From an uncultured virus (IMG/VR IMGVR_UViG_3300032221_000327) (taxonomy: Duplodnaviria; Heunggongvirae; Uroviricota; Caudoviricetes): DNA of 64,000 nt. The translations under genes and the position numbers were made by a program. Below, in pieces: positions 2,088 through 63,113 of this stretch. A model generated the notes under the pieces. It saw only the letters and a list, made by a program, of their open reading frames with translations. It had not been told where the DNA came from and searched no databases. Numbering within the stretch: the first letter of the stretch is position 1; the number at the start of each line of letters is the position of its first letter. The stretch is taken from IMG/VR virus record IMGVR_UViG_3300032221_000327; one strand, 5' to 3'.

Positions 2088-2717
2088 ATGAATATATCTC
2101 ACGCTTACATTCTGGCCACGTTCTTTCACGCCTCGGCACAAGAACGCGCCGATGGCGCCTCATGGTATGACCGTGCATCAGTGGCTGCTGCTGAGATTGC
2201 GGCAGAATGTAGCCTCAGCATTTCTGGCGTGGCCGGCGTTGTCGCCGCACTTAGCCCAAACAACCGATGGGAGCGTAACTGCGCCGACGCTGAGCGTCTG
2301 TGCCGACTCTATACGGCCGGCGGCGCCGAATCGGCCGCTGCTTGCGTGGTGTCCACCTATGGAGCGAACAAGGCCAAGGCGCTTCGGGTTTTGGCGGGGG
2401 AACCACCCCTCACGGTGCTAGGTGGTTTGAAAGTGCGGGCATTTTATGAATGCATTATCGGCAGTACAACTAGCGTTTGCGTGGACGGTCACGCTTACGC
2501 TATTTGGGCGGGCGAGCGGATTGCTACTACGCAAACGCCTAAGATCAGCGCCAAGCTTTATGCGGCAATCTCCGCCGCTTACATACAGGCTGCCGATACT
2601 GTTAACGCTGTGACCGGCGCGTCGTATTCTGCCGCGCAAGTGCAGGCAATTACTTGGCTCACTTGGCGGCGCATGATTCAAGAAAACGGACTCTACCGGA
2701 GCACAAACACAAAATGA
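2088..2717 (+). CDS. HhH-GPD glycosylase-like phage protein (DUF7178-like)
   Basis: GASWY, AALSPNNRWERN, GGLKVRAFY, VCVDGHAY, QVQAITW; ATG 2088 directly follows upstream stop. Confidence 0.6.
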   Translation: MNISHAYILATFFHASAQERADGASWYDRASVAAAEIAAECSLSISGVAGVVAALSPNNRWERNCADAERLCRLYTAGGAESAAACVVSTYGANKAKALRVLAGEPPLTVLGGLKVRAFYECIIGSTTSVCVDGHAYAIWAGERIATTQTPKISAKLYAAISAAYIQAADTVNAVTGASYSAAQVQAITWLTWRRMIQENGLYRSTNTK

Positions 2718-2875
2718 ACGATTCTACAAAGTGCTACCTATTGTCGGCGATTCTCGCCGCTGATAACATCCCGGACGCGGTGATCACTGACGCTATGTCA
2801 ACGCTAGGTAAGTGTCGCCCATGGGCCCCCTACAGGAGCCTGCGCGATTGGCAGGCAGCTCAGCCGCCAGACTAG
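2714..2875 (+). CDS. small hypothetical protein
   Basis: ATGA overlap with upstream gene; 53 aa; followed by hairpin. Confidence 0.5.
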   Translation: MNDSTKCYLLSAILAADNIPDAVITDAMSTLGKCRPWAPYRSLRDWQAAQPPD

Positions 2876-2913
2876 CTGCGCGCCCCTTCCAGGGGCCCCT
2901 AGGTCGCAATCGT

Positions 2914-2940
2914 AGCCTCCGGGAAACCGGGGGCTGTTCT
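2914..2940 (+). terminator. putative terminator hairpin
   Basis: AGCCTCCGG-GAAA-CCGGGGGCT, weak U tract. Confidence 0.5.
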
Positions 2941-2986
2941 ACTGGGAGAGAATGTAGGGGGAACAGTCTCCACTGTTTCGGCGCAT

Positions 2987-3007
2987 TATTGAGAATCATT
3001 CTCAATA
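2987..3007. promoter_or_regulatory. Fur-box-like 10-1-10 palindrome
   Basis: TATTGAGAAT-C-ATTCTCAATA perfect inverted repeat in non-coding DNA. Confidence 0.6.
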
Positions 3008-3222
3008 CGCTGCGCCAACCCGCAAGCCGTCCACTGTTAAGTTTCGTGACGGTGAGCGTATGACGGTAGTGTTATGGAGCAGTAACGGGGGGAAATGGCG
3101 AAGCGGGGCTGGGACTCCCCCTCCCAAGGGGCGCGTAATTTTCGGTTGAAAACTAATTCCCCCCATCTCCAGCGCCCACTGCGCGAACGATCTAGCAGTT
3201 CACGAGCGGGAGTGAGCGCATG

Positions 3223-3297
3223 AGATTGTTCGTGCCCGTACGATTGCATGAGCCGGAGCATTGTACTGGCTGGAAGATTGTTCGTGCCTGACGATTG
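3223..3297. repeat. iteron-like direct repeat
   Basis: AGATTGTTCGTGCC at 3223 and 3275, each followed after 2-3 nt by ACGATTG. Confidence 0.75.
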
Positions 3298-3549
3298 TAC
3301 GAAGGGGCAATGGCCGGAGGGCCGCAGGCCGCCACTGTTATTGCCCCTTAGTTAGTCGTACGAGCAGGAGCAATGGAAGGAACAGTTTATCGGTTTTTGC
3401 AATAAGCGTCAGTTATCGAGAATGCAAGTGGAAGGAGAACAGCCCATTTCTTTTCCATTGAGGCTTCCTGGAGCGCCCTTTGCTCATGCGGCCCTCAAGG
3501 GCCGTCGTTCGTTGGGCGCTTGTTCGTTCATTATTGTATAAAAACTGTC

Positions 3550-3579
3550 AAAAGTGTGCCCTCCCGTAGCGGAGCACAC
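3550..3579 (-). terminator. intrinsic terminator for leftward transcript
   Basis: Minus strand GTGTGCTCC-GCTACG-GGAGGGCACAC-TTTT. Confidence 0.55.
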
Positions 3580-3884
3580 CATGGCCATGCCCTCACGATG
3601 TATCACGACCGGGGAAAAGAAGAAAGAGAAAATAGAGAGGATGGAGAAGGAGCCTTGGACTGTACCGGCGGGAGGAAGTCGCCAGGAACAATCGCCTTGG
3701 GGGCTGCCCTCGCGTGCGACTTCCGCTTGCGACTGGCTCTAAGGCTCCCGGCGAAGGTTTCTAAGAAACGCTTTGAGAGGGAGCGTGTGGAGCTGAGCCG
3801 CTGTGACGGGCACGCTTGAGGCTCCTGATCGAGCGGCTCGCAGGGGATGCTGCTGCTGCTTCGTAAGGCTCTGTAGCGGAGCCC
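3550..3884 (-). ncRNA. candidate ~330-nt structured non-coding RNA
   Basis: Lies between a near-consensus promoter and a terminator; nested and crossing inverted repeats; no convincing ORF. Confidence 0.45.
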
Positions 3885-3890
3885 CTTACC

Positions 3891-3919
3891 AGTGTAAACC
3901 TTTGTCAACAGGCTGTCAA
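3891..3919 (-). promoter_or_regulatory. sigma70-type promoter
   Basis: TTGACA (3919-3914)-N17-TACACT (3896-3891). Confidence 0.7.
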
Positions 3920-4105
3920 CATATTGAACAAGGGGCAATGGAAAGGAAAAGCTAGTGATTGCAAGGGAAGTGGAGGGAGGGCGATGGAAAGGGAATGGAG
4001 AGGGTTCTTGCTTGTGACAATTTATCTTCTGGATAAGCAAGGGAATCAAGACAATTCCCTTCCATTGGGACTGCCTTAGCCTTTGAGGCAGTTACCAGCA
4101 GCGTC

Positions 4106-4381
4106 GTGCCTTCTCTTGCTTCCGTGCCCAAGCGTTCCCCTTATCAACTGCCTTCTTCCACCACGTTGCGAGTGGAAGCCATCTACAGCCTGCGGGTGAG
4201 TATGCAGCGGCATGAAAGCAAGGTGGTGCGGGACATGCTCAAGGTGTTGAGGGAGGCGGTGGTGAAGCAGCAGTACCAGGCTGCTACTGGCGGGGGACGC
4301 CCTGGCTACCTCCTGAAGCTGACTGGCATGGTTGCGGAGGAAGTGCAGAAAGATGAAGCCCCTGCCTACCCCGACTGGTGA
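4106..4381 (+). CDS. hypothetical protein
   Basis: 91-aa ORF at head of a + strand run. Confidence 0.55.
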   Translation: MPSLASVPKRSPYQLPSSTTLRVEAIYSLRVSMQRHESKVVRDMLKVLREAVVKQQYQAATGGGRPGYLLKLTGMVAEEVQKDEAPAYPDW

Positions 4382-4407
4382 TGAAGCCCCTGCCTACCCC
4401 GACTGGT
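4352..4407. repeat. exact 28-bp tandem duplication
   Basis: GATGAAGCCCCTGCCTACCCCGACTGGT x2 (4352-4379, 4380-4407). Confidence 0.95.
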
Positions 4408-4496
4408 AGGGCAGGCGCCAATGATGAGGAGGACCGTGGCAGTTGACCGGAGCGGGCAGCCGTGCCTACCGTGGGCGAGCCCTCAGTGCCCCAGCA

Positions 4497-5288
4497 ATGG
4501 CTTCCAGCGACTGCCCAACAGCAACTAGCTTCCCTCCATCGACCAACTCCCGGCGACGGCCGTTCCATCGGTTTGTGCTTTCCGTGGACGAGGAGTCCAT
4601 GGAGGCTGTCTTAAGAGGTGACTTGGACAGCCTGATGGCAGCGTTTTGTTGGATCGACTCTCCCCAAGGCCATAAGTATTGGCGGCGGCTCCACGCTGGA
4701 GAGGTGCCTCTGTCTGACAGCGACAAGCGCATGTTGGTGCTGTGGATAATCATTGGTGCCATGCCGATAGAAACAGTGTTTGATGCGGAGGATTATCACT
4801 GCTCCAACCACGCAGCACGCCTGCGGGGCGTGGTGGAACACGGCGGGGTTAAAGCGTTGGACGAGTTGTTCACTTGGAACAAGACTTGTCAAGGTCACGA
4901 TTACTGGCAGGATCGTCGCTACAGGGGTGTGCCATTGTCCCACGCAGACAAGGAATGGCTCCTGGCGCTGGCTGAGCTTCACGACAGGATTGAACAGGAT
5001 CGTAGCGATGGCATTAAGCAGCCCCAAGGGACTCCCAGCAAGACTGAGGCCAAGGACGACGCAGCGGACGAGCCAGTGCAGCAAGCTGCCCAGGTGGACG
5101 AGCCAGTACAACAGGCTGCTGTGGCCAAGCGGGAGCTGGAAGCCGCCATCAGCAAGCTCCTTGCCACCTTCTGCCGGGAGCACAATGCTTCCCTGGATGA
5201 GCTGGACATTCTCCACACAGTCGATGCCACTGGCACCAGCCTGATCGAGGTGACGATTGATGCGCATGTCGCCACTCCCATTCTCTGA
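4497..5288 (+). CDS. hypothetical protein with two FxWxx(S/T)xQGxxYW repeats (paralogue 1)
   Basis: Internal repeats; strong DNA and protein similarity to 5346-6107. Confidence 0.8.
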   Translation: MASSDCPTATSFPPSTNSRRRPFHRFVLSVDEESMEAVLRGDLDSLMAAFCWIDSPQGHKYWRRLHAGEVPLSDSDKRMLVLWIIIGAMPIETVFDAEDYHCSNHAARLRGVVEHGGVKALDELFTWNKTCQGHDYWQDRRYRGVPLSHADKEWLLALAELHDRIEQDRSDGIKQPQGTPSKTEAKDDAADEPVQQAAQVDEPVQQAAVAKRELEAAISKLLATFCREHNASLDELDILHTVDATGTSLIEVTIDAHVATPIL

Positions 5289-5345: not shown

Positions 5346-6107
5346 ATGACTGCTTCCATGACCACTTCATCGCCCTACCGCCGCCCCCCGTTTCATCAGT
5401 TTGTGCGTTCCGTGAACAAGGAGCCGCTGGAGGCTGTCTTAAGAGGCGACTTGGACAGCCTGAAGATAGCGTTTCCTTGGATCCGCTCCCCCCAGGGTAG
5501 TGAGTATTGGCGGCAACGCTACTGTGGAGAGGTGCCCCTGTCGGACGACGACAAGGCCATGCTTCGTCGCTGGCTGATCATCAAAGACATGCCAGAGGCT
5601 TTTATCGCTGAGCATCTGGAAGTTGGTTTTACCGACCGGAACCGGGCACTTCGCGCCATTGCCCACGGCGGCCCCCTGAAGGACTTGATCTCGTTGTTCG
5701 CATGGGCGCCCACCAGCCAAGGTATCCATTACTGGGCGGCTCGTTGCTACGGGGAGGCACCATTGTCAGGCGAAGACAAGGAATGGCTTTTGGCGCTGGC
5801 CGAGCTGAGCGACAGAATCCAAGAAGACTTGCAAGCAGGACTGCTGCGCAAAGGTAAAAAGGGCTTGGAAACGGTGCCGGCTGCAGAAGCCTCCCCTGCT
5901 CCTGCTCCTGCTCCCTCTGATTCTCCGTTGCTCCCCGTCCTCAAGCAAGCCATTCGCGCCAAGGGCGATCTGGAAGCTGCCATCAGCACGCTCCTGGCTG
6001 ACTTCTGCCGTCAATATGGCGCCACGATTGATGAAGTAATCGTGCATGGCCGGACGACGACAGGCACGACTGTGACGGTTGGCGCCCACATTTCTCAGCC
6101 CCTTTGA
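5346..6107 (+). CDS. hypothetical protein with two FxWxx(S/T)xQGxxYW repeats (paralogue 2)
   Basis: Shares EAVLRGDLDSL, GEVPLS, DKEWLLALAEL, LEAAIS with 4497-5288. Confidence 0.8.
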   Translation: MTASMTTSSPYRRPPFHQFVRSVNKEPLEAVLRGDLDSLKIAFPWIRSPQGSEYWRQRYCGEVPLSDDDKAMLRRWLIIKDMPEAFIAEHLEVGFTDRNRALRAIAHGGPLKDLISLFAWAPTSQGIHYWAARCYGEAPLSGEDKEWLLALAELSDRIQEDLQAGLLRKGKKGLETVPAAEASPAPAPAPSDSPLLPVLKQAIRAKGDLEAAISTLLADFCRQYGATIDEVIVHGRTTTGTTVTVGAHISQPL

Positions 6108-7835: not shown

Positions 7836-7855
7836 GCCCGCTCGGCGGGCTTTTT
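7836..7855 (+). terminator. intrinsic terminator-like hairpin
   Basis: GCCCGC-TCG-GCGGGC-TTTTT. Confidence 0.6.
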
Positions 7856-7862
7856 GTGTCTT

Positions 7863-10400
7863 ATGAAGCTCAAGGAAAAGGCTCGTTGCGAAAAGATTGC
7901 TCGCACTGGCAGGGTGCAAGATTGGCTTGATAGCCCCGAAAGCAGACTCCCGGCATCTTGCACTACGTTCATCGTGGAAGATGATATGGAAGGGCCGGAT
8001 GGTATTGAGGCTTCGTGGCGCTACGTCTCCCATGGCCTTCGCAACGCTGCAGGAGTGGCGGTCCACCTCTCCAAACTTCGCCCTCGTGGCACGGACAATG
8101 GCAAAGGACTGATTGCTAGCGGTCCCGTAAGTTTCGCCACCATCTATAGCAAACTTAATGAGATTCTTCGGCGTGGCGGCAAGTTCCGCAATGGTGCTAT
8201 TACACTCCATCTTGATTATGACCATCCTGATGCCATTGATTTTGTTAATGCAACTCGCGCCGAACTTCCCTGGGCTAAGCGTTGTCTAAACGTTGACCAA
8301 CATTTCCTTGACAAAGCATCGCCTGAACTGATTTCCGCTTGCATGAAAGCAATCAGCAATGGCGACCTTTGGCTCACAAAAATGCGCACTGACAAGAATG
8401 GTGCTCGCATCTATGGCAATGTTTGCGTAGCTGGCAGCACTATCATTCTCACCACTGAAGGCCCTCGCAAGATTTCTGATCTCCAAGGCCAAGCCTTCGT
8501 TGCAATTATTAATGGCCAAGAGCATCCTTCTTCTGATCGTGGTGCATGGAGCAATGGCTTCCGTCAAACCTATCTTCTGGAGACCAAAGAAGGCTATTCA
8601 GTTCGGGCCACTGCCGATCATAAAATCATGACGGCCAATGGATGGAAAGAACTTGGCAGTTTGAAGCCTGGTGACAAGATTTCACTCAACAAGCACTGGT
8701 CAGACGAAGCTTGCCAATGGGGCGGCAAGGGTTCTTACGACGAGGGCTGGCTGATTGGCTGGCTTCTCGCTGATGGCACCTACCAGAACGACGAAAATGC
8801 CAAGCTTGATTTTTATGGCAGCAAGCAATGTCTACTAGATGGCGCCCTGAAAAAGCTTGCCACTCTTGACAACTATCTTCAGCGCGACCACTATTCTAAA
8901 CTTCGCACTGGCACTGTTAGCGCATGTGCTGATCGTACAAGCGTAGGAAGCGCAGGACTAGCTCGTGCTGCCATGGAATATGGCATTGCTCGTAGCAATA
9001 AAACCGCCACTGAACTCCTTGAAGAAACTAGCGCAGAGTTTCAGCGAGGATTCCTTGAAGCCTATTTTTCTGCTGATGGCACTGTTAGTGTTGGAGGTGT
9101 GTCGGGCAATGGTAAAAGCATTGGCGTGACGAGCGTCAACTTCCGCAATTTGGAAGTGATGCAACGCATGTTGCTGCGCTTTGGTATTCGCAGTCGTATT
9201 TGGAAAGAGTGCTACAACGGTGGCATGACCATGATGCCAGATGGCAAAGGTGGACAAAAGCTTTATCAAACGCAAAAAGCTTCTCGCCTTGACATTTCTG
9301 GACAAGCCGATTTCCATCGCTTCAACACTTTCATTGGTTTCACTCTTCCCGAAAAACAAGAAAAGCTTGATGCGCTGCTGAGCACTTATCAAAAAGCTGC
9401 CTATGCCAAGCGATATGAAGCCATTGTTTGTTCCATCACGCCTCACGACGTGGAAGAAGTGTTTGATTGCTCCATTCCCACTGCAGGAGCTTTTGATGCC
9501 AATGGCATTTACGTATCGAACTGCTTAGAGGTGCTGCTGCCTCACCGTGGTACATGCCTGCTTGAGCACATCAACATGGGCGCCTGCTCTATTAACGAAC
9601 TTGAAGGGGCATTTGTCGATGGCATGAAAGAGCTTTGCGAACTTCATGGCCGTACTGGCGTGGGAGAAACAGGCGAATATCTGCCACCTGAGAAGGATAG
9701 GCAAGTGGGTCTCGGCATACTCGGCCTCGCCAACTTCCTTTCTATTCACGATATTTCCTACCGGGATTTTGGGGAAGCTCTTGATGCCTTCCTCATGGAT
9801 GATCCACATCCTTGGTGCCACTACTGGGGCGAAAAGCCCGCTGGAAAGGCCGTGAAAGCCCTGGACAAGGCCATTCAAGCCGCTGCGGAAGTGGCTCGTG
9901 AGAACAAGATGGAACGCGCCTTTGCTATTGCCCCTACTGCCTCCTGCTCCTACCGCTACTTAGATGCCCGAGGCTTCACAACTGCCCCTGAAATTGCTCC
10001 TCCCATTGCCCGTATTGTCGATCGGGATAGTGAAACAATGGGCGTGGAACGGTTTGAATATGGGCCAGTGGAAATTGCTGAAGAAGTGGGCTGGGAAACA
10101 TTCCGCAAAGTGGCTGATGGCATTGCGCGGCTTTATTCTCGCACTGGCCTCTACCATTCCTACTCGCTTAACTGGTGGTCGGACATGGTAGTTTGCGACG
10201 AAGCCTTCATTAAAGAATGGCTGGACAGTCCGCAAACTTCTCTTTACTACGCCCTTCAAGTGCAAAGTGGCACCCAAGCCAAGGATGATGTTGGAGTAGA
10301 ATTGGGGGACGACTTCTCCAGTTTCTTTGAGCTGGAGAATGAAGACAAGCCTGAGGCTTGTTCCATTGATGCTGGCTTCTGCGCCGCTTGCTCAGAATGA
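7863..10400 (+). CDS. nrdA: ribonucleotide reductase class I alpha subunit (compact cyanophage type), intein-containing
   Basis: PASC, LSKLRPRG, SGPVSF, split N-V-[intein]-C-L-E motif, IAPTAS, SLYY, C-terminal CAAC; ~480-aa extein. Confidence 0.92.
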   Translation: MKLKEKARCEKIARTGRVQDWLDSPESRLPASCTTFIVEDDMEGPDGIEASWRYVSHGLRNAAGVAVHLSKLRPRGTDNGKGLIASGPVSFATIYSKLNEILRRGGKFRNGAITLHLDYDHPDAIDFVNATRAELPWAKRCLNVDQHFLDKASPELISACMKAISNGDLWLTKMRTDKNGARIYGNVCVAGSTIILTTEGPRKISDLQGQAFVAIINGQEHPSSDRGAWSNGFRQTYLLETKEGYSVRATADHKIMTANGWKELGSLKPGDKISLNKHWSDEACQWGGKGSYDEGWLIGWLLADGTYQNDENAKLDFYGSKQCLLDGALKKLATLDNYLQRDHYSKLRTGTVSACADRTSVGSAGLARAAMEYGIARSNKTATELLEETSAEFQRGFLEAYFSADGTVSVGGVSGNGKSIGVTSVNFRNLEVMQRMLLRFGIRSRIWKECYNGGMTMMPDGKGGQKLYQTQKASRLDISGQADFHRFNTFIGFTLPEKQEKLDALLSTYQKAAYAKRYEAIVCSITPHDVEEVFDCSIPTAGAFDANGIYVSNCLEVLLPHRGTCLLEHINMGACSINELEGAFVDGMKELCELHGRTGVGETGEYLPPEKDRQVGLGILGLANFLSIHDISYRDFGEALDAFLMDDPHPWCHYWGEKPAGKAVKALDKAIQAAAEVARENKMERAFAIAPTASCSYRYLDARGFTTAPEIAPPIARIVDRDSETMGVERFEYGPVEIAEEVGWETFRKVADGIARLYSRTGLYHSYSLNWWSDMVVCDEAFIKEWLDSPQTSLYYALQVQSGTQAKDDVGVELGDDFSSFFELENEDKPEACSIDAGFCAACSE
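8424..9521 (+). mobile_element. intein with LAGLIDADG homing endonuclease (366 aa)
   Basis: Starts CVAGSTIILT, block B ATADHKI, GWLIGWLLADG and GFLEAYFSADG, VFDCSIP, ends GIYVSN before Cys. Confidence 0.93.
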
Positions 10401-11396: not shown

Positions 11397-11660
11397 AGGC
11401 GACCGGAAGGCCGCCTCTAAGTCCCCGGCTCGCAGCCTGGGCATTTCCCTCCATTGCTCCGTCAATGGAGAGCAGCCAGTTCAGGAACCTGCGTCGTCAG
11501 GGTGTGGTCTTGCTGGTCTGTGTTCAAATCCCGTGTTTGCGGGTCGGGAGGACGCTCCCGCTAGTTTGGTCCGCTAGTGCGCTTTCCCACTTGGCAAGCG
11601 CAAAGGACTAGCTCCCCTAAGCCTCTCAACGATGCTCAAACAGGGGGACTTCTGGGAGGT
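11397..11660 (+). ncRNA. candidate ~260-nt multi-helix structured RNA
   Basis: At least seven consecutive stems plus an 8-bp long-range closing helix 11419-11426/11644-11651. Confidence 0.6.
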
Positions 11661-13884: not shown

Positions 13885-13998
13885 CTGCGACTGCAGCAGG
13901 CGAGCAGCCTTCCGCAAGCGTTGTTGAATCAAGGCAAGGTGGTTCATTGTGGCCTCCATGTCCCGGCCCCGTTCCCTGCCGGCGATCATGCGCTCCTG

Positions 13999-14178
13999 CT
14001 ACAGCGGGAGTGAACGTGCCAACAGACTAGCATCATCCTCTGCCACGCCAAGCCAATGCTCCAGCGCACGGGCTGCTAGTCCCGCCTCGATGCTGCGATG
14101 GCCATGGCGCCTGCTGGAAGCCTCCAGCGCACCTTCTGCGGCTGCAATGGCAGCCTGCGGATCATCTTCCCTAACCAT
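13999..14178 (-). CDS. small hypothetical protein
   Basis: ATG 14178 overlapping upstream minus-strand stop. Confidence 0.45.
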   Translation of the reverse strand: MVREDDPQAAIAAAEGALEASSRRHGHRSIEAGLAARALEHWLGVAEDDASLLARSLPL

Positions 14179-51001: not shown

Positions 51002-52171
51002 TCAGGCTTCCTTGACCATGACAGCCCACCCATCGTTGCCCTTCGGCATCCAGCGGCGCTCCCAATACTGATTAGGAAACACTACATACTGCCCGCCTTG
51101 TGCGCTCTTGTAGCCACCGTGAATCAAGTCGCACAACCCGTAGGGGTCGTGGTGAATGGTGCCCCCATTAGAAAGGCCCACAATGGTAGTCCAATGGCCA
51201 CTGCCAGCAGGCGCACGATAGTTGCCATAATGCAACCAACCCACAGCGAGCGGACGGCCCGCCTGGATTTCTTTTGTCACATCCGCCAGCGTCAAGTTTT
51301 GACGGAATGTAGCAACCAGCCCTAGCTCCTGCAGCGCCTTCAGTTGCGCCGTTGAATTGGTGGTGTCACCATACTTCTTGCGGATGGCATTGTATTGATC
51401 ATCACTTGTTACTTTTCCATAGAACGCCGCCAGCATTGCGCAGGCGCTGGAGAAGCATTCGCGATGCCCTTGCCCTGACGCATTGTCCCGCTGGCTGAAA
51501 TAGGGAACGGTCAATGGATTAGTGAATGACGGGCCTGCTGGTGCCGCTGGGCGTGCCCTGTAGAGCTTCCCAAACTCCAGCCGCTGTTCCATCGTCATTG
51601 TCTTGTGCAGCCACTCATAGGCCGCCACTTGATGCTCCTCGTTCTTGAAGTTACGGGCTGCTGCCACCATTGAAATGTCGCCAGTGGCAGGGGCTGCAGC
51701 AGGCGCCACACTGGTACTCCATAGCTTTCCCTCCGCTGTGCGACGACGCTTGAGGCCCGCTTCCACTGTGCTGCCAGGGTTGACATAGAGCATGAGCGCA
51801 TCCGGCACCCTGCTCCATTCCTTCCCCTTCAGACGTTGTGACAACGTAGCGAACCCTTCAGTGCCGTAGAAGTGCCAGCCAAGGTTCCATGCAAAGGACA
51901 GCAGCGCCCCCTTCTGGTTGTCGTTCATTCCGTCCCAGCCGGGAATCTTCACCAGGGCCGGCAGCACATCTTTCGTGACAGCAGTGCGCAGCATGGCTTC
52001 TGCCTGCCCTTCCGTGATGCGATCACCACGCTTCACTGCACGGCCATCAGGCATCTTGGTGGAACCGTAGCCGATCGTCCATGGCTCTCCCCCAGATAAG
52101 GGGTCTGGATAGGCGGAAAGCTCCAAACCTTCAAATTCCCGAATCAGAGCCAAGCCAGCGTCTACGTTCAT
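51002..52171 (-). CDS. endolysin: GH24 lysozyme fused to C39-like peptidase
   Basis: FEG…AYPD…WTIGYG, ALLSFAWNLG, GLKRRR; VPYFSQRDN, ECFSSACAM, GHW, HDPYG. Confidence 0.9.
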   Translation of the reverse strand: MNVDAGLALIREFEGLELSAYPDPLSGGEPWTIGYGSTKMPDGRAVKRGDRITEGQAEAMLRTAVTKDVLPALVKIPGWDGMNDNQKGALLSFAWNLGWHFYGTEGFATLSQRLKGKEWSRVPDALMLYVNPGSTVEAGLKRRRTAEGKLWSTSVAPAAAPATGDISMVAAARNFKNEEHQVAAYEWLHKTMTMEQRLEFGKLYRARPAAPAGPSFTNPLTVPYFSQRDNASGQGHRECFSSACAMLAAFYGKVTSDDQYNAIRKKYGDTTNSTAQLKALQELGLVATFRQNLTLADVTKEIQAGRPLAVGWLHYGNYRAPAGSGHWTTIVGLSNGGTIHHDPYGLCDLIHGGYKSAQGGQYVVFPNQYWERRWMPKGNDGWAVMVKEA

Positions 52172-61981: not shown

Positions 61982-62239
61982 TCAGTTGGCGGGGCCCACA
62001 GCGGAGAAGAGGCTGGGGATGGCGTAGGTGCTGCCGGGGGTGTTGGGCGCCGCAGGGCCAATAGCCGTGGGGCGATCGTTCACCACACCAGAGGCACCAC
62101 CAGGGGCACGCATCATGGCACGGGCCTCACGCACGGAAATGCCATACGCCTTGGCTACGCGGCGAGCGGGGCCAGCAAAGGCGGGAGCGGCAGTGGACAG
62201 GAGAAAGCCAGCGGCCAGAAGCAGGGAGAAGGAACGCAT
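61982..62239 (-). CDS. small secreted protein
   Basis: Signal peptide MRSFSLLLAAGFLLSTAAPAFA. Confidence 0.65.
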   Translation of the reverse strand: MRSFSLLLAAGFLLSTAAPAFAGPARRVAKAYGISVREARAMMRAPGGASGVVNDRPTAIGPAAPNTPGSTYAIPSLFSAVGPAN

Positions 62240-62291
62240 GGTGAGAAAACACATGACGAAAGGGACAGGCTCAAACCTTGAACCTGCCGCC

Positions 62292-62319
62292 ATCCTACCC
62301 ACAACTCCCCGCCTGTCAA
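62292..62319 (-). promoter_or_regulatory. sigma70-type promoter
   Basis: TTGACA-N16-TAGGAT upstream of 62239. Confidence 0.6.
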
Positions 62320-62378
62320 TTACTTGGGTGAACGGACGCAACGGTGCCGCTGGCTTGCGGCTTCTTCGCGGAAGCAAT

Positions 62379-62406
62379 AAAAAGGGCCCCTTGCCGGGGG
62401 CCCTTT
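62379..62406. terminator. bidirectional terminator-like hairpin
   Basis: AAAAAGGGCCCC-TTGCCG-GGGGCCCTTT. Confidence 0.6.
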
Positions 62407-62888
62407 CAGGGATCGGCGCACACAACGCCAACCCCAACTGGAAATGTCCGACCCCATTGTGGCTCCCCTTGCAGCCAGCCATGCACTCCATTGTGCCAAC
62501 TGCTCCACTGTCACAATTAAGTTTGACAGGGGTGCCTAGACTCGTCCCCGGTCTGACCTTCCAGCAACAACGCGCCTGGGCAGACCACTCACACCGGCCA
62601 GCGGCGCTCCTGAAGGGGAGAGGCGATGGAGGGAATGTAGGGGCAGTAGCCTCCGCTGAGAGGCAGCACGCGAGGGAGCCCCAAGCGGGCCTGTCAAGCT
62701 GCCTCTCCCCACTCCCCCTCCTGCATACTTCTTCTCCATAAACCTTCGCAAGAGCGCCATTGAAAAGGTGGCGAGCCCCAAGCGAGCCTTAGTCAGGCGC
62801 TCCTTCCCCCTTCTCTGCTCTCTTTCTTAAAAGGCTTGCAGGAATGAACGAAAGGGCTTAAGCTGGCCGAGCCATCAATGCCCATGCT

Positions 62889-63113
62889 GTGTCTGCCCTT
62901 CCCCCCAGTGCTCCAGAAAGGCTTCCATTGCTTGAACATGCTGGAATCCTGATCGAACCAATCATTCACCATGGCTTTTCGCGGCCCTTCAGGGGGCCGC
63001 TTCCGATAGCACGCACCATCTTTGGCGCTCGCAATCCTGCCGATGGCGAACGCCACTGGCGCAGGAGCTATGACGAACTCACCAGCCTTATTGACAGAGG
63101 CTTTCAACCATGA
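62889..63113 (+). CDS. hypothetical protein
   Basis: 74 aa, ATGA-coupled to next gene. Confidence 0.55.
   Translation: MSALPPSAPERLPLLEHAGILIEPIIHHGFSRPFRGPLPIARTIFGARNPADGERHWRRSYDELTSLIDRGFQP

Follow-up and report, generated by a model that had tools for sequence, protein, structure and literature searches.

Why should a promoter in a phage genome point against every neighbouring gene, into DNA with no conserved reading frame? The question arises near one end of a 64,000-nucleotide (nt) stretch of DNA from an uncultured virus of the class Caudoviricetes (IMG/VR record IMGVR_UViG_3300032221_000327), all of which was analysed here and is referred to as the window. The answer proposed here is RNA1, a predicted stand-alone noncoding RNA (ncRNA) of ~335 nt encoded on the minus strand at positions 3550 to 3884, with a start inferred 7 nt past the -10 box and an end inferred at a run of four U residues. 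Comparison with relatives makes it very probable that a real minus-strand ncRNA gene lies at 3550-3884. That this gene mimics the leaders of operons and titrates a factor that binds a hairpin module carried by both is a tentative reading, which taken as a whole is somewhat likelier wrong than right. Judged from its sequence, the source phage is an S-CBS4-like cyanosiphovirus: it is an uncultured relative of the Synechococcus siphovirus S-CBS4, with a portal protein identity of 60.3%, and the gene order of the window is collinear with the S-CBS4 genome.

A leftward promoter and its transcript

Homologues of the locus were collected from several sources. Of 72 loci around relatives of the nearby DUF7178 gene, only L004 shared DNA with the region, and patterns made from the conserved core yielded 11 and then 12 viral contigs. 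A scan of genome contigs returned 84 loci, 2 of them homologous (L136 and L153, both on short contigs of metagenome-assembled genomes), and a scan of metagenome contigs returned 22, one of which was a chance match. There were 27 distinct units including the window, and removal of L083 (truncated) and L189 (homologous only in the pattern) left 25 RNA1 homologues, which are not independent lineages. L182 and L201 are without the 3' block and were excluded from the folding of 3' hairpins and from the counts of open reading frames (ORFs). Promoters in relatives were read by eye on alignments.

The RNA1 promoter (3891-3919, minus strand) consists of TTGACA at 3919-3914, a 17-nt spacer, and TACACT at 3896-3891, as the original prediction had it, and scores 10/12. 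It is the sole promoter-like site in 2700-4500, compared with a mean of 0.5 in shuffles, and is not significant alone. Its two boxes differ in their conservation. The first, second, and last positions of the -10 hexamer (TAnnnT) are kept in 25/25 distinct homologues among 9 different hexamers, and the box sits 6 to 8 nt before a conserved start block beginning with GGC; the homologue alignments contain no comparable conserved box on the plus strand of the locus. The -35 TTGACA is not conserved, and relatives carry CTCGCR-like sequences or operator-like, lineage-specific repeats and palindromes in its place. A second TTGACA lies at 3908-3903, 6 nt from the -10 box of RNA1, and the arrangement TTGACA-N6-TAnnnT also occurs in L182 and L136. 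The -35 region of the window contains two GTTGACA repeats, other lineages having palindromes or repeats of their own, and by their sequence these elements look like operators of a DNA-binding regulator. What had been predicted as a stand-alone leftward unit with a host-type promoter, opposite in direction to all neighbouring genes, is borne out in its -10 box.

At the other end, a terminator-like hairpin (GUGUGC...GCACAC, 3554-3579) is followed by UUUU at 3550-3553, the whole occupying 3550-3579 on the minus strand. The hairpin with its U4 has a predicted energy of -15.9 kcal/mol (z -2.48), which 6/200 shuffles equalled; it was not picked up by a terminator scan, which required five or more T among 8 positions. 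The 3' block of RNA1 has no conserved structure. A second promoter considered at this block was dropped, there being no TAnnnT at a consistent distance.

From the -10 box to the 3' block the homologues span 196 to 469 nt, some lineages having additional C-type modules (see below). Among 23 homologues the longest frame varies between 2 and 119 codons and lies in no consistent place, and the RNA of the window contains no ATG frame. The claim that the unit is free of ORFs holds in that none is conserved, but a 148-codon TTG frame (3603-4049, minus strand) does overlap RNA1. The start of this frame precedes the promoter; neither Pfam nor PHROG gives a match to it, and it is not conserved. A search of 3550-3919 against Rfam 15 gave nothing at gathering score, in line with the earlier failure to recognise the family; at E<=5, the region 2700-4500 gave 6 matches to eukaryotic or otherwise unrelated models, at 13.5 to 18.8 bits against gathering scores of 40 to 106. 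No described family fits, and RNA1 represents a new family of an RNA type already known. Its description as a conserved, promoter-driven, noncoding gene running opposite to all neighbouring genes is, on this comparative evidence, highly likely to be correct.

A repeated hairpin module with covarying stems

All four helices of the original prediction are present in the window, and three of them, A, B, and C, form the stems of a single repeated hairpin module and belong to a covarying family. The fourth, a crossing helix at 3782-3787/3811-3816 from which a pseudoknot topology had been drawn, does not: at 4/6 of its pairs it is Watson-Crick in only 1-3/25 homologues, and the pseudoknot is not upheld.

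The module has a stem of 7 to 12 bp of free sequence and a loop of ~28 to 30 nt in whose RNA sequence the run ACGAGCR(G)GAGCCCCAAGCG is conserved. Read on the plus strand of the window, a stem arm and a linker that varies are followed by the core CGCTTGGGGCTC, then by a linker of the YGCTCG type and the second stem arm. RNA1 is an array of two to four copies per homologue, each a single hairpin of 45 to 55 nt, separated by CU-rich spacers of 45 to 60 nt. Module B (3795-3839, minus strand) has an 8-bp stem at 3795-3802/3832-3839 and a loop containing ..CGAUCAGGAGCCUCAAGCGUGCCCGUCAC.., and is matched at 54.3 bits (E 4.6e-9) by R2, one of two covariance models of the module, R1 and R2, that were built. 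Its stem is invariant among RNA1 homologues, and its paralogues carry other stems. Helix A (3649-3748, minus strand), formed by 3649-3656/3741-3748, is the outer stem of module A and in the window encloses module C; six of its pairs are Watson-Crick in 19-22/25 homologues, and both its length and its sequence vary in relatives. Module C (3674-3724, minus strand; R2 19.4 bits, E 0.099) has a 9-bp stem at 3674-3682/3716-3724, and related C modules in L076, L005, L004, and L182 have stems that are different yet complementary.

CU-rich spacers follow each module in all RNA1 homologues, as read from the alignment, and contain CCUCC or CUCCC runs; the motif CCU(U/C)CGC precedes each module. In the window the spacers are a pyrimidine-rich, single-stranded tract after module A (3600-3648, minus strand; 84% C+U in the RNA) and a second CU-rich spacer at 3749-3794 on the same strand.

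The compensatory changes by which the original prediction proposed to judge the RNA are found in the module stems. Across 63 matches (54 distinct rows), 95.7% of stem cells are paired, compared with 70.4% in shuffles, and all 8 stem pairs show double changes (103 cells versus 29 expected). When the partner was slid by 1 to 3 columns as a control, 33 to 46% of cells were paired. An independent stem finder recovered 21 distinct stems with 185 Watson-Crick pairs, and a script found the module, with wholly different stems, at 3674-3724 and 3795-3839 as well as at 62658-62707 and 62750-62804 on the opposite strand. Within the loop, paired insertions occur: GAGC-CCCAA-GCG in some modules corresponds to GAGCC-CCCAA-GGCG in others, a C added on one side of the core being matched by a G added on the opposite side. 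From the sequences this suggests a short mini-stem closing a CCCAA loop. An inner helix GAGCG/CGUUC was considered for the module loop and dropped, RNAalifold finding no conserved inner helix in either sense.

In two further viral contigs, L205 (~1170-1240) and L208 (1-70), the core GCGAGCCCCAAGCGAGC lies within a hairpin whose flanks are unrelated and AT-rich, and the module may therefore extend beyond the S-CBS4-like group.

The module in an operon leader and a terminator

Two further modules are found near the other end of the window, in the 5' leader of RNA2 (62537-62888, plus strand), which is paralogous to RNA1 and stands before the first gene of a predicted early gene block. The promoter region of RNA2 (62508-62542, plus strand) has a -10 box TAGACT at 62537-62542 and a palindrome CTGTCAC-N8-TTTGACAG at 62508-62529. 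The -10 box is followed by ~120 nt, module B2 (62660-62705, plus strand; R2 49.8 bits), a CU-rich spacer with a conserved AAACCUUCGC, module A2 (62752-62802, plus strand; R2 33.2 bits), and then a gene. Both modules present the GAGCCCCAAGCG loop on stems entirely unlike those of A and B.

A scan with the core of the A2 and T type (for T, see below) returned 12 viral loci, among them 5 distinct RNA2-type loci and the T hairpin of one known contig; the remainder comprised 2 cores in hairpins with unrelated flanks and 3 likely chance matches. Together with the window, the RNA2-type loci (window, L206, L211, L212, L213 [=L216], and L215) all, 6/6, have a TAnnnT box followed by CGTCC or CTTCC, and 6/6 consist of a promoter, two modules, and then a gene. 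Because every RNA2 locus runs into a gene, RNA2 is taken as a 5' leader. RNA1 is built in the same way, with no gene behind it. In G001, a 63-kb relative, both loci are present, convergent and 16.4 kb apart around a gene block, and the order of loci in the window matches that of G001 if the ends of the window are joined.

The gene behind RNA2 encodes a conserved protein of 74 to 78 amino acids in 4 lineages; in G001 and L213 a 230-amino-acid protein comes first, followed by the small one. In the window it is a conserved 74-amino-acid protein (62889-63113, plus strand) with homologues in L204, L211, L212, L213, L215, and S-CBS4 (gp084), the last being a genome in which R2 detects no module. The protein has no Pfam or PHROG match. 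Its AlphaFold2 model (predicted local distance difference test score, 85.2) is made up of four strands plus a helix at the C terminus, and no fold in the PDB matches at E<=0.001, the best match being at 0.59. A "terminal repeat" considered at the RNA2 locus was dropped, as it falls inside the gene of this 74-amino-acid protein.

The module also recurs on both sides of RNA1. Hairpin T (3471-3540, plus strand), the terminator of the upstream plus-strand operon, is a degenerate module with a stem at 3471-3478/3514-3521, an inner mini-hairpin GGCCC-UCAA-GGGCC, and a U-rich tail. It has a predicted energy of -30.4 kcal/mol (z -3.65), and its stem covaries between lineages. In L153, L185, and L191, R2 detects T on the strand opposite to A and B (E 0.0018 to 0.015). 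The sequence TTTCTTTCCCATTG adjoins hairpin T and is conserved in relatives. A diverged copy, module X (4085-4154, plus strand), has a stem AGGCAGUU/AACUGCCU and a loop with GUGCCCAAGCGUUCC; it is a weak match (R2 17.5 bits, E 0.25), folds with a z of -1.29, and lies in the leader of the rightward genes that begin at 4443.

These copies bear on the strand of RNA1. T, X, A2, and B2 show the GAGCCCCAAGCG-type loop in the direction of their flanking genes, and for A, B, and C this loop sense corresponds to the minus strand, which gives independent support for a leftward RNA1. All 7/7 modules of the window, together with all modules of the 25 RNA1 and 6 RNA2 loci, have a single orientation relative to local transcription. 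The conserved -10 box and the sense of the modules elsewhere both point to the minus strand as the predicted strand of RNA1.

A putative decoy of operon leaders

We consider the loop of the module to be a candidate binding site of one factor, most likely an RNA-binding protein of the phage or the host, or else RNA polymerase itself. Such a factor would act on leaders and terminators, setting read-through, stability, or translation, and RNA1, which carries the sites with no gene behind them, would mimic a leader in trans and so titrate the factor. Since operator-like repeats surround the RNA1 promoter, which is arranged back to back with the downstream operon, a DNA-binding regulator of the phage would control the decoy. 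Granted that the ncRNA gene is real, we give this decoy mechanism a chance approaching but short of even. Among the functions that the original prediction had offered, a protein sponge fits best in view of the hairpin array, the strictly conserved loop, and its recurrence in leaders and a terminator; no evidence was met for an antitoxin mimic or a replication primer.

By analogy, the nearest worked-out case for the decoy model of RNA1 is EutX/Rli55. In the portions of the published account available to us, EutX/Rli55 of Enterococcus and Listeria is a stand-alone RNA that carries the leader site of the antiterminator EutV and sequesters it (PMC5821096). As in that system, so far as the same portions describe it, one hairpin occurs both in a stand-alone RNA and in operon leaders by terminators, and the decoys may be encoded on the strand of the regulated genes or on the opposite one, a situation comparable to that of the window (PMC5821096). 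Unlike EutX/Rli55, the modules described here are single hairpins with loops of 28 to 30 nt and a GAGCCCCAAGCG core, are encoded by a phage, and have no riboswitch, and the decoy action of RNA1 is a predicted one. ANTAR substrates consist of two small hairpins with short loops.

Sponges of the CsrB/RsmZ kind are a second likeness. They present repeated hairpins with one conserved loop motif (GGA) that is also found in mRNA leaders, and RNA1 is likewise an array of hairpins with one loop motif that is also found in leaders. In RNA1, however, the motif is not GGA but extends over at least 12 nt in a large loop, and only 2 to 4 copies are present.

The put antitermination elements of phage HK022 offer a further comparison. 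These are ~70 nt long, form two adjacent stem-loops, bind RNA polymerase, and suppress termination without protein factors, according to the sections of the report at hand (PMC9378689). Like putL and putR, as those sections present them, the elements described here are two paralogous stem-loop RNAs per genome that have sequence in common and lie downstream of two promoters, and the RNA2 modules stand a few hundred nt into a leader (PMC9378689). The likeness lies in the idea of two paralogous RNA elements near promoters and does not extend to architecture, which differs in the 2 to 4 modules set apart by CU-rich spacers of 50 to 60 nt, in an RNA1 without downstream genes to antiterminate, and in a module that also forms terminator T.

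Several observations weigh against the reading of RNA1 as a structured decoy. Folded as a whole (3545-3890, 346 nt), RNA1 reaches a minimum free energy no better than that of shuffles (z -0.91 and -0.99 for the two strands), and the case therefore rests on comparison with relatives. The proposed terminator, present in the window, fails as a feature of the family: the 3' hairpin is missing from the 22 relatives folded, in which an A-rich tract follows the 3' block and precedes hairpin T. All RNA1 homologues were found by patterns that fix the core of the module-B loop, most of which also fix the B stem, so B cannot show covariation; moreover, the 63-match alignment behind the pairing figures was fitted to the model. 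Among the module stem cells, 400/419 are Watson-Crick, with 1 G.U pair in one sense and 3 in the other. A second count gave 3 internal wobbles, all G.T on the plus strand (0 on the RNA strand) and near stem ends. Because the stems are almost wholly Watson-Crick, wobble pairs carry no strand information, and their near-lack would also fit DNA hairpins. In S-CBS4, the sole cultured relative, R2 run with its filters off finds no module. Finally, the decoy model leaves the covarying terminal repeat of RNA1, described in the next section, unexplained.

The alternative that survives best, unlikely as we judge it to be, is that RNA1 is a by-product of a cis-acting insulator, in which a leftward promoter and its hairpins fire against or terminate read-through between operons and the modules are this phage group's own terminator or stability hairpin. 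The position of RNA1 exactly between two codirectional operons, converging on terminator T, is what such an insulator would occupy, and T itself is a module with a U-rich tail. A U-rich run also follows the second leader module in L212 and L215, just before the start codon, and a pyrimidine-rich tract follows each module. Plain terminators, however, need no 12-nt loop conserved across lineages with wholly different stems, and no U runs adjoin the stems of modules A and B in RNA1. Loops of 28 to 30 nt are also poorly suited to intrinsic termination, and the covarying terminal repeat would be unexplained here as well.

A terminal repeat that differs between lineages

The original prediction had placed the same 10-mer in the first and last hairpins of the RNA, and this holds exactly. 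The 5' copy (3873-3882, minus strand), GCUCCGCUAC in the RNA, lies inside the first hairpin at 3863-3889, and the 3' copy (3566-3575, minus strand) is preceded by a conserved CCAUGGUGUGC context. The 10-mer occurs exactly twice in the 64 kb, at 3566 and 3873, on one strand. The first hairpin has an energy no better than that of shuffles (z 0.05).

In relatives the repeat is lineage specific and 7 to 10 nt long: the window has GCUCCGCUAC, L188 has GCCUAACGUG, L199 has GCGCAGCGUG, and L079 has GCACACGC, and others differ again. Its 5' and 3' copies nonetheless covary between lineages. Over 7 classes the sum of shared substrings is 58, compared with a mean of 29.3 over 5040 permutations, and the identity pairing alone reaches it.

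This covariation is a point in favour of a trans-acting, base-pairing small RNA, in which the repeat, the CU-rich (anti-Shine-Dalgarno-like) spacers, or both would pair with host or phage mRNAs and the hairpins would serve stability only. Both copies in the window lie partly in hairpin loops, and the CCUCC or CUCCC runs would suit such pairing. The targets are what speaks against it: neither the 10-mer nor any of its 8-mers has a complement at a meaningful place in the 64-kb window, and the best duplexes of the repeat elsewhere in the window (-19.2 and -18.9 kcal/mol) fall inside the span obtained with shuffled queries (-17.9 to -21.6). Against the interior of its own RNA, in 10 representatives, the repeat reaches -8.3 to -17.8 kcal/mol, no better than the repeats of other lineages (means, -11.7 to -14.2). 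The conserved loops and their presence in leaders and terminators would also go unexplained. We regard this alternative as a little less credible than the insulator.

The cyanobacterial small RNA Yfr1 carries an ultraconserved 11-nt motif in an unpaired spacer between two stem-loops, as stated in the part of the report available (PMC2190773). RNA1 resembles it, on the same partial account, in having a CU-rich unpaired stretch between stem-loops in a cyanobacterial system (PMC2190773). Mimicry of Yfr1 was considered and dropped: the 11-mer is matched at 7-8/11 positions, a chance level reached by 202 to 498 of 500 shuffles, and Rfam gives no match.

More speculatively, RNA1 and the RNA2 leader might form an RNA-centred switch in a group of cyanophages, with the 7- to 10-nt terminal repeat as an "address" that coevolves like an immunity specificity; we consider this doubtful. 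It is equally doubtful that such an address would set which phage's leader, factor, or transcripts RNA1 acts on. If true, an address-bearing RNA1 would be a means of heteroimmunity or timing control lodged in RNA, not in a repressor-operator pair.

Improbable alternatives: a DNA element or an immunity RNA

It is improbable, and slightly more so than a base-pairing RNA, that the locus acts at the level of DNA, as a replication origin, single-strand initiation signals, or DNA-protein sites, with the -10-like box incidental. The scarcity of wobble pairs (400/419 Watson-Crick) would suit DNA hairpins, and the locus lies within 1.7 kb of ORF-free DNA dense in boxes of both orientations, namely CAATGGAA(A)GG, TTGTTCGT, and TATTGAGAAT palindromes. 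The heptamer CTGTCAA occurs 21 times in the window versus 10.5 expected, a number that 0/100 shuffles reach, and the RNA2 locus is ~2 kb downstream of a gene for a RecA-family/AAA_25 replication-type ATPase. A double-strand binding site, however, needs no complementary arms of free sequence. The single orientation of the modules relative to local transcription is unexpected for a DNA site, and conserved TAnnnT promoters lie upstream of both loci.

The architecture also recalls the CI RNA of phage P4, in which direct repeats, seqA and seqC, flank CI, as the consulted part of the source has it (PMC4825925). Like that RNA, as far as this part describes it, RNA1 is a predicted phage transcript that is not translated and whose structured core has a direct repeat on either side, the repeats here being lineage specific (PMC4825925). 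Unlike it, RNA1 has neither an internal seqB-like complement nor downstream replication genes. In immunity of the P4 type, a fragment processed from RNA1 would base-pair with the two direct repeats of transcripts still being made and end them prematurely, with the repeat as the specificity. This reading would draw on those lineage-specific flanking repeats and on a promoter that overlaps lineage-specific operator-like repeats. It is very unlikely indeed, given that the interior of RNA1 has no segment complementary to the repeat, that there are no genes beyond RNA1 whose expression it could shut off, and that no integrase is seen in the window, where 51002-52171 encodes a lysozyme-peptidase.

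Significance for cyanosiphoviruses

To our knowledge, regulation in cyanobacterial siphoviruses is almost unexplored. No description of such an element was met in a full-text literature search on noncoding RNA of cyanophages and siphoviruses, judged by titles and the openings of abstracts. If the reading of RNA1 as a leader decoy is true, the locus would provide a structured RNA module that is new and covaries strongly, a phage gene whose noncoding RNA imitates the leaders of operons, and a covarying pair of terminal repeats without known counterpart. The module, as a loop bait and as a covariance model, would then be a handle on the factor in charge of early transcription in these phages. The module is also useful for annotating the long "empty" intergenic stretches of viral metagenome contigs.

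Genomic setting and other observations

The genes of the window include those for RusA, DUF7178, a ribonucleotide reductase with an intein, a tape measure protein, the lysozyme-peptidase, ThyX, dCTP deaminase, Sak, and the AAA_25 ATPase. RNA1 lies inside a 1.7-kb stretch (2717-4443) with plus-strand genes on both sides, in which no ORF matches a Pfam or PHROG family. No peptide encoded in 2700-3560 is kept in relatives, and 2700-4500 has no DNA similarity to any cultured phage.

Other repeated boxes occur around the RNA loci. Boxes of the CAATGGAA(A)GG type are found in both orientations on both sides of RNA1 (3305-3384, 3447-3460, 3933-3995, and 4055-4067) and may be operators or iterons. At 2987-3007 there is a palindrome, TATTGAGAAT-C-ATTCTCAATA, whose 10-nt arms are perfectly complementary, and related TATTGAGAAT, GATAAAC, and GTTTAT boxes occur near both RNA loci in relatives (L180, L194, L211, L212, and L215). 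A conserved noncoding block, ..CACTGCGCGAACGATC..GGAGTGAG..AGATTGTTCGT (3177-3233, plus strand), stands between the DUF7178 gene and hairpin T and is common to many relatives; TTGTTCGT/ACGAACA boxes are repeated, and the block has no conserved ORF. Clusters of CTGTCAA/TTGACAG mark both RNA promoters (62508-62529 and 3903-3919), the 3' end of RNA1 (3545-3551), and the positions 63091-63097 before the gene at 63110.

Upstream of the RNA2 promoter, a strong hairpin, GGGCCCC..GGGGCCC (62384-62403, minus strand), is followed by UUUUU and lies within a mechanically called ORF at 61982-62491. This hairpin probably terminates leftward genes, which makes the ORF doubtful.

Two matches to Rfam families elsewhere in the window are barely above threshold: a Glutamine-II riboswitch aptamer (13961-14019, minus strand; 34.3 bits versus a gathering score of 33) and an abiF RNA (11613-11649, plus strand; 42.8 bits versus 37). 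At 7854-10400 (plus strand), the large subunit of ribonucleotide reductase is split by an intein, in which Pfam recognises a LAGLIDADG domain. Rightward of the RNA1 promoter region, the first two genes (4443-5288 and 5346-6107, plus strand) encode paralogous proteins with internal repeats like F.W..SPQG..YW...Y.GE.PLS..DK, and their PHROG matches are only to families of unknown function. Just upstream of the gene at 4443, a 28-nt unit is present as an exact tandem duplication (4352-4407, plus strand).

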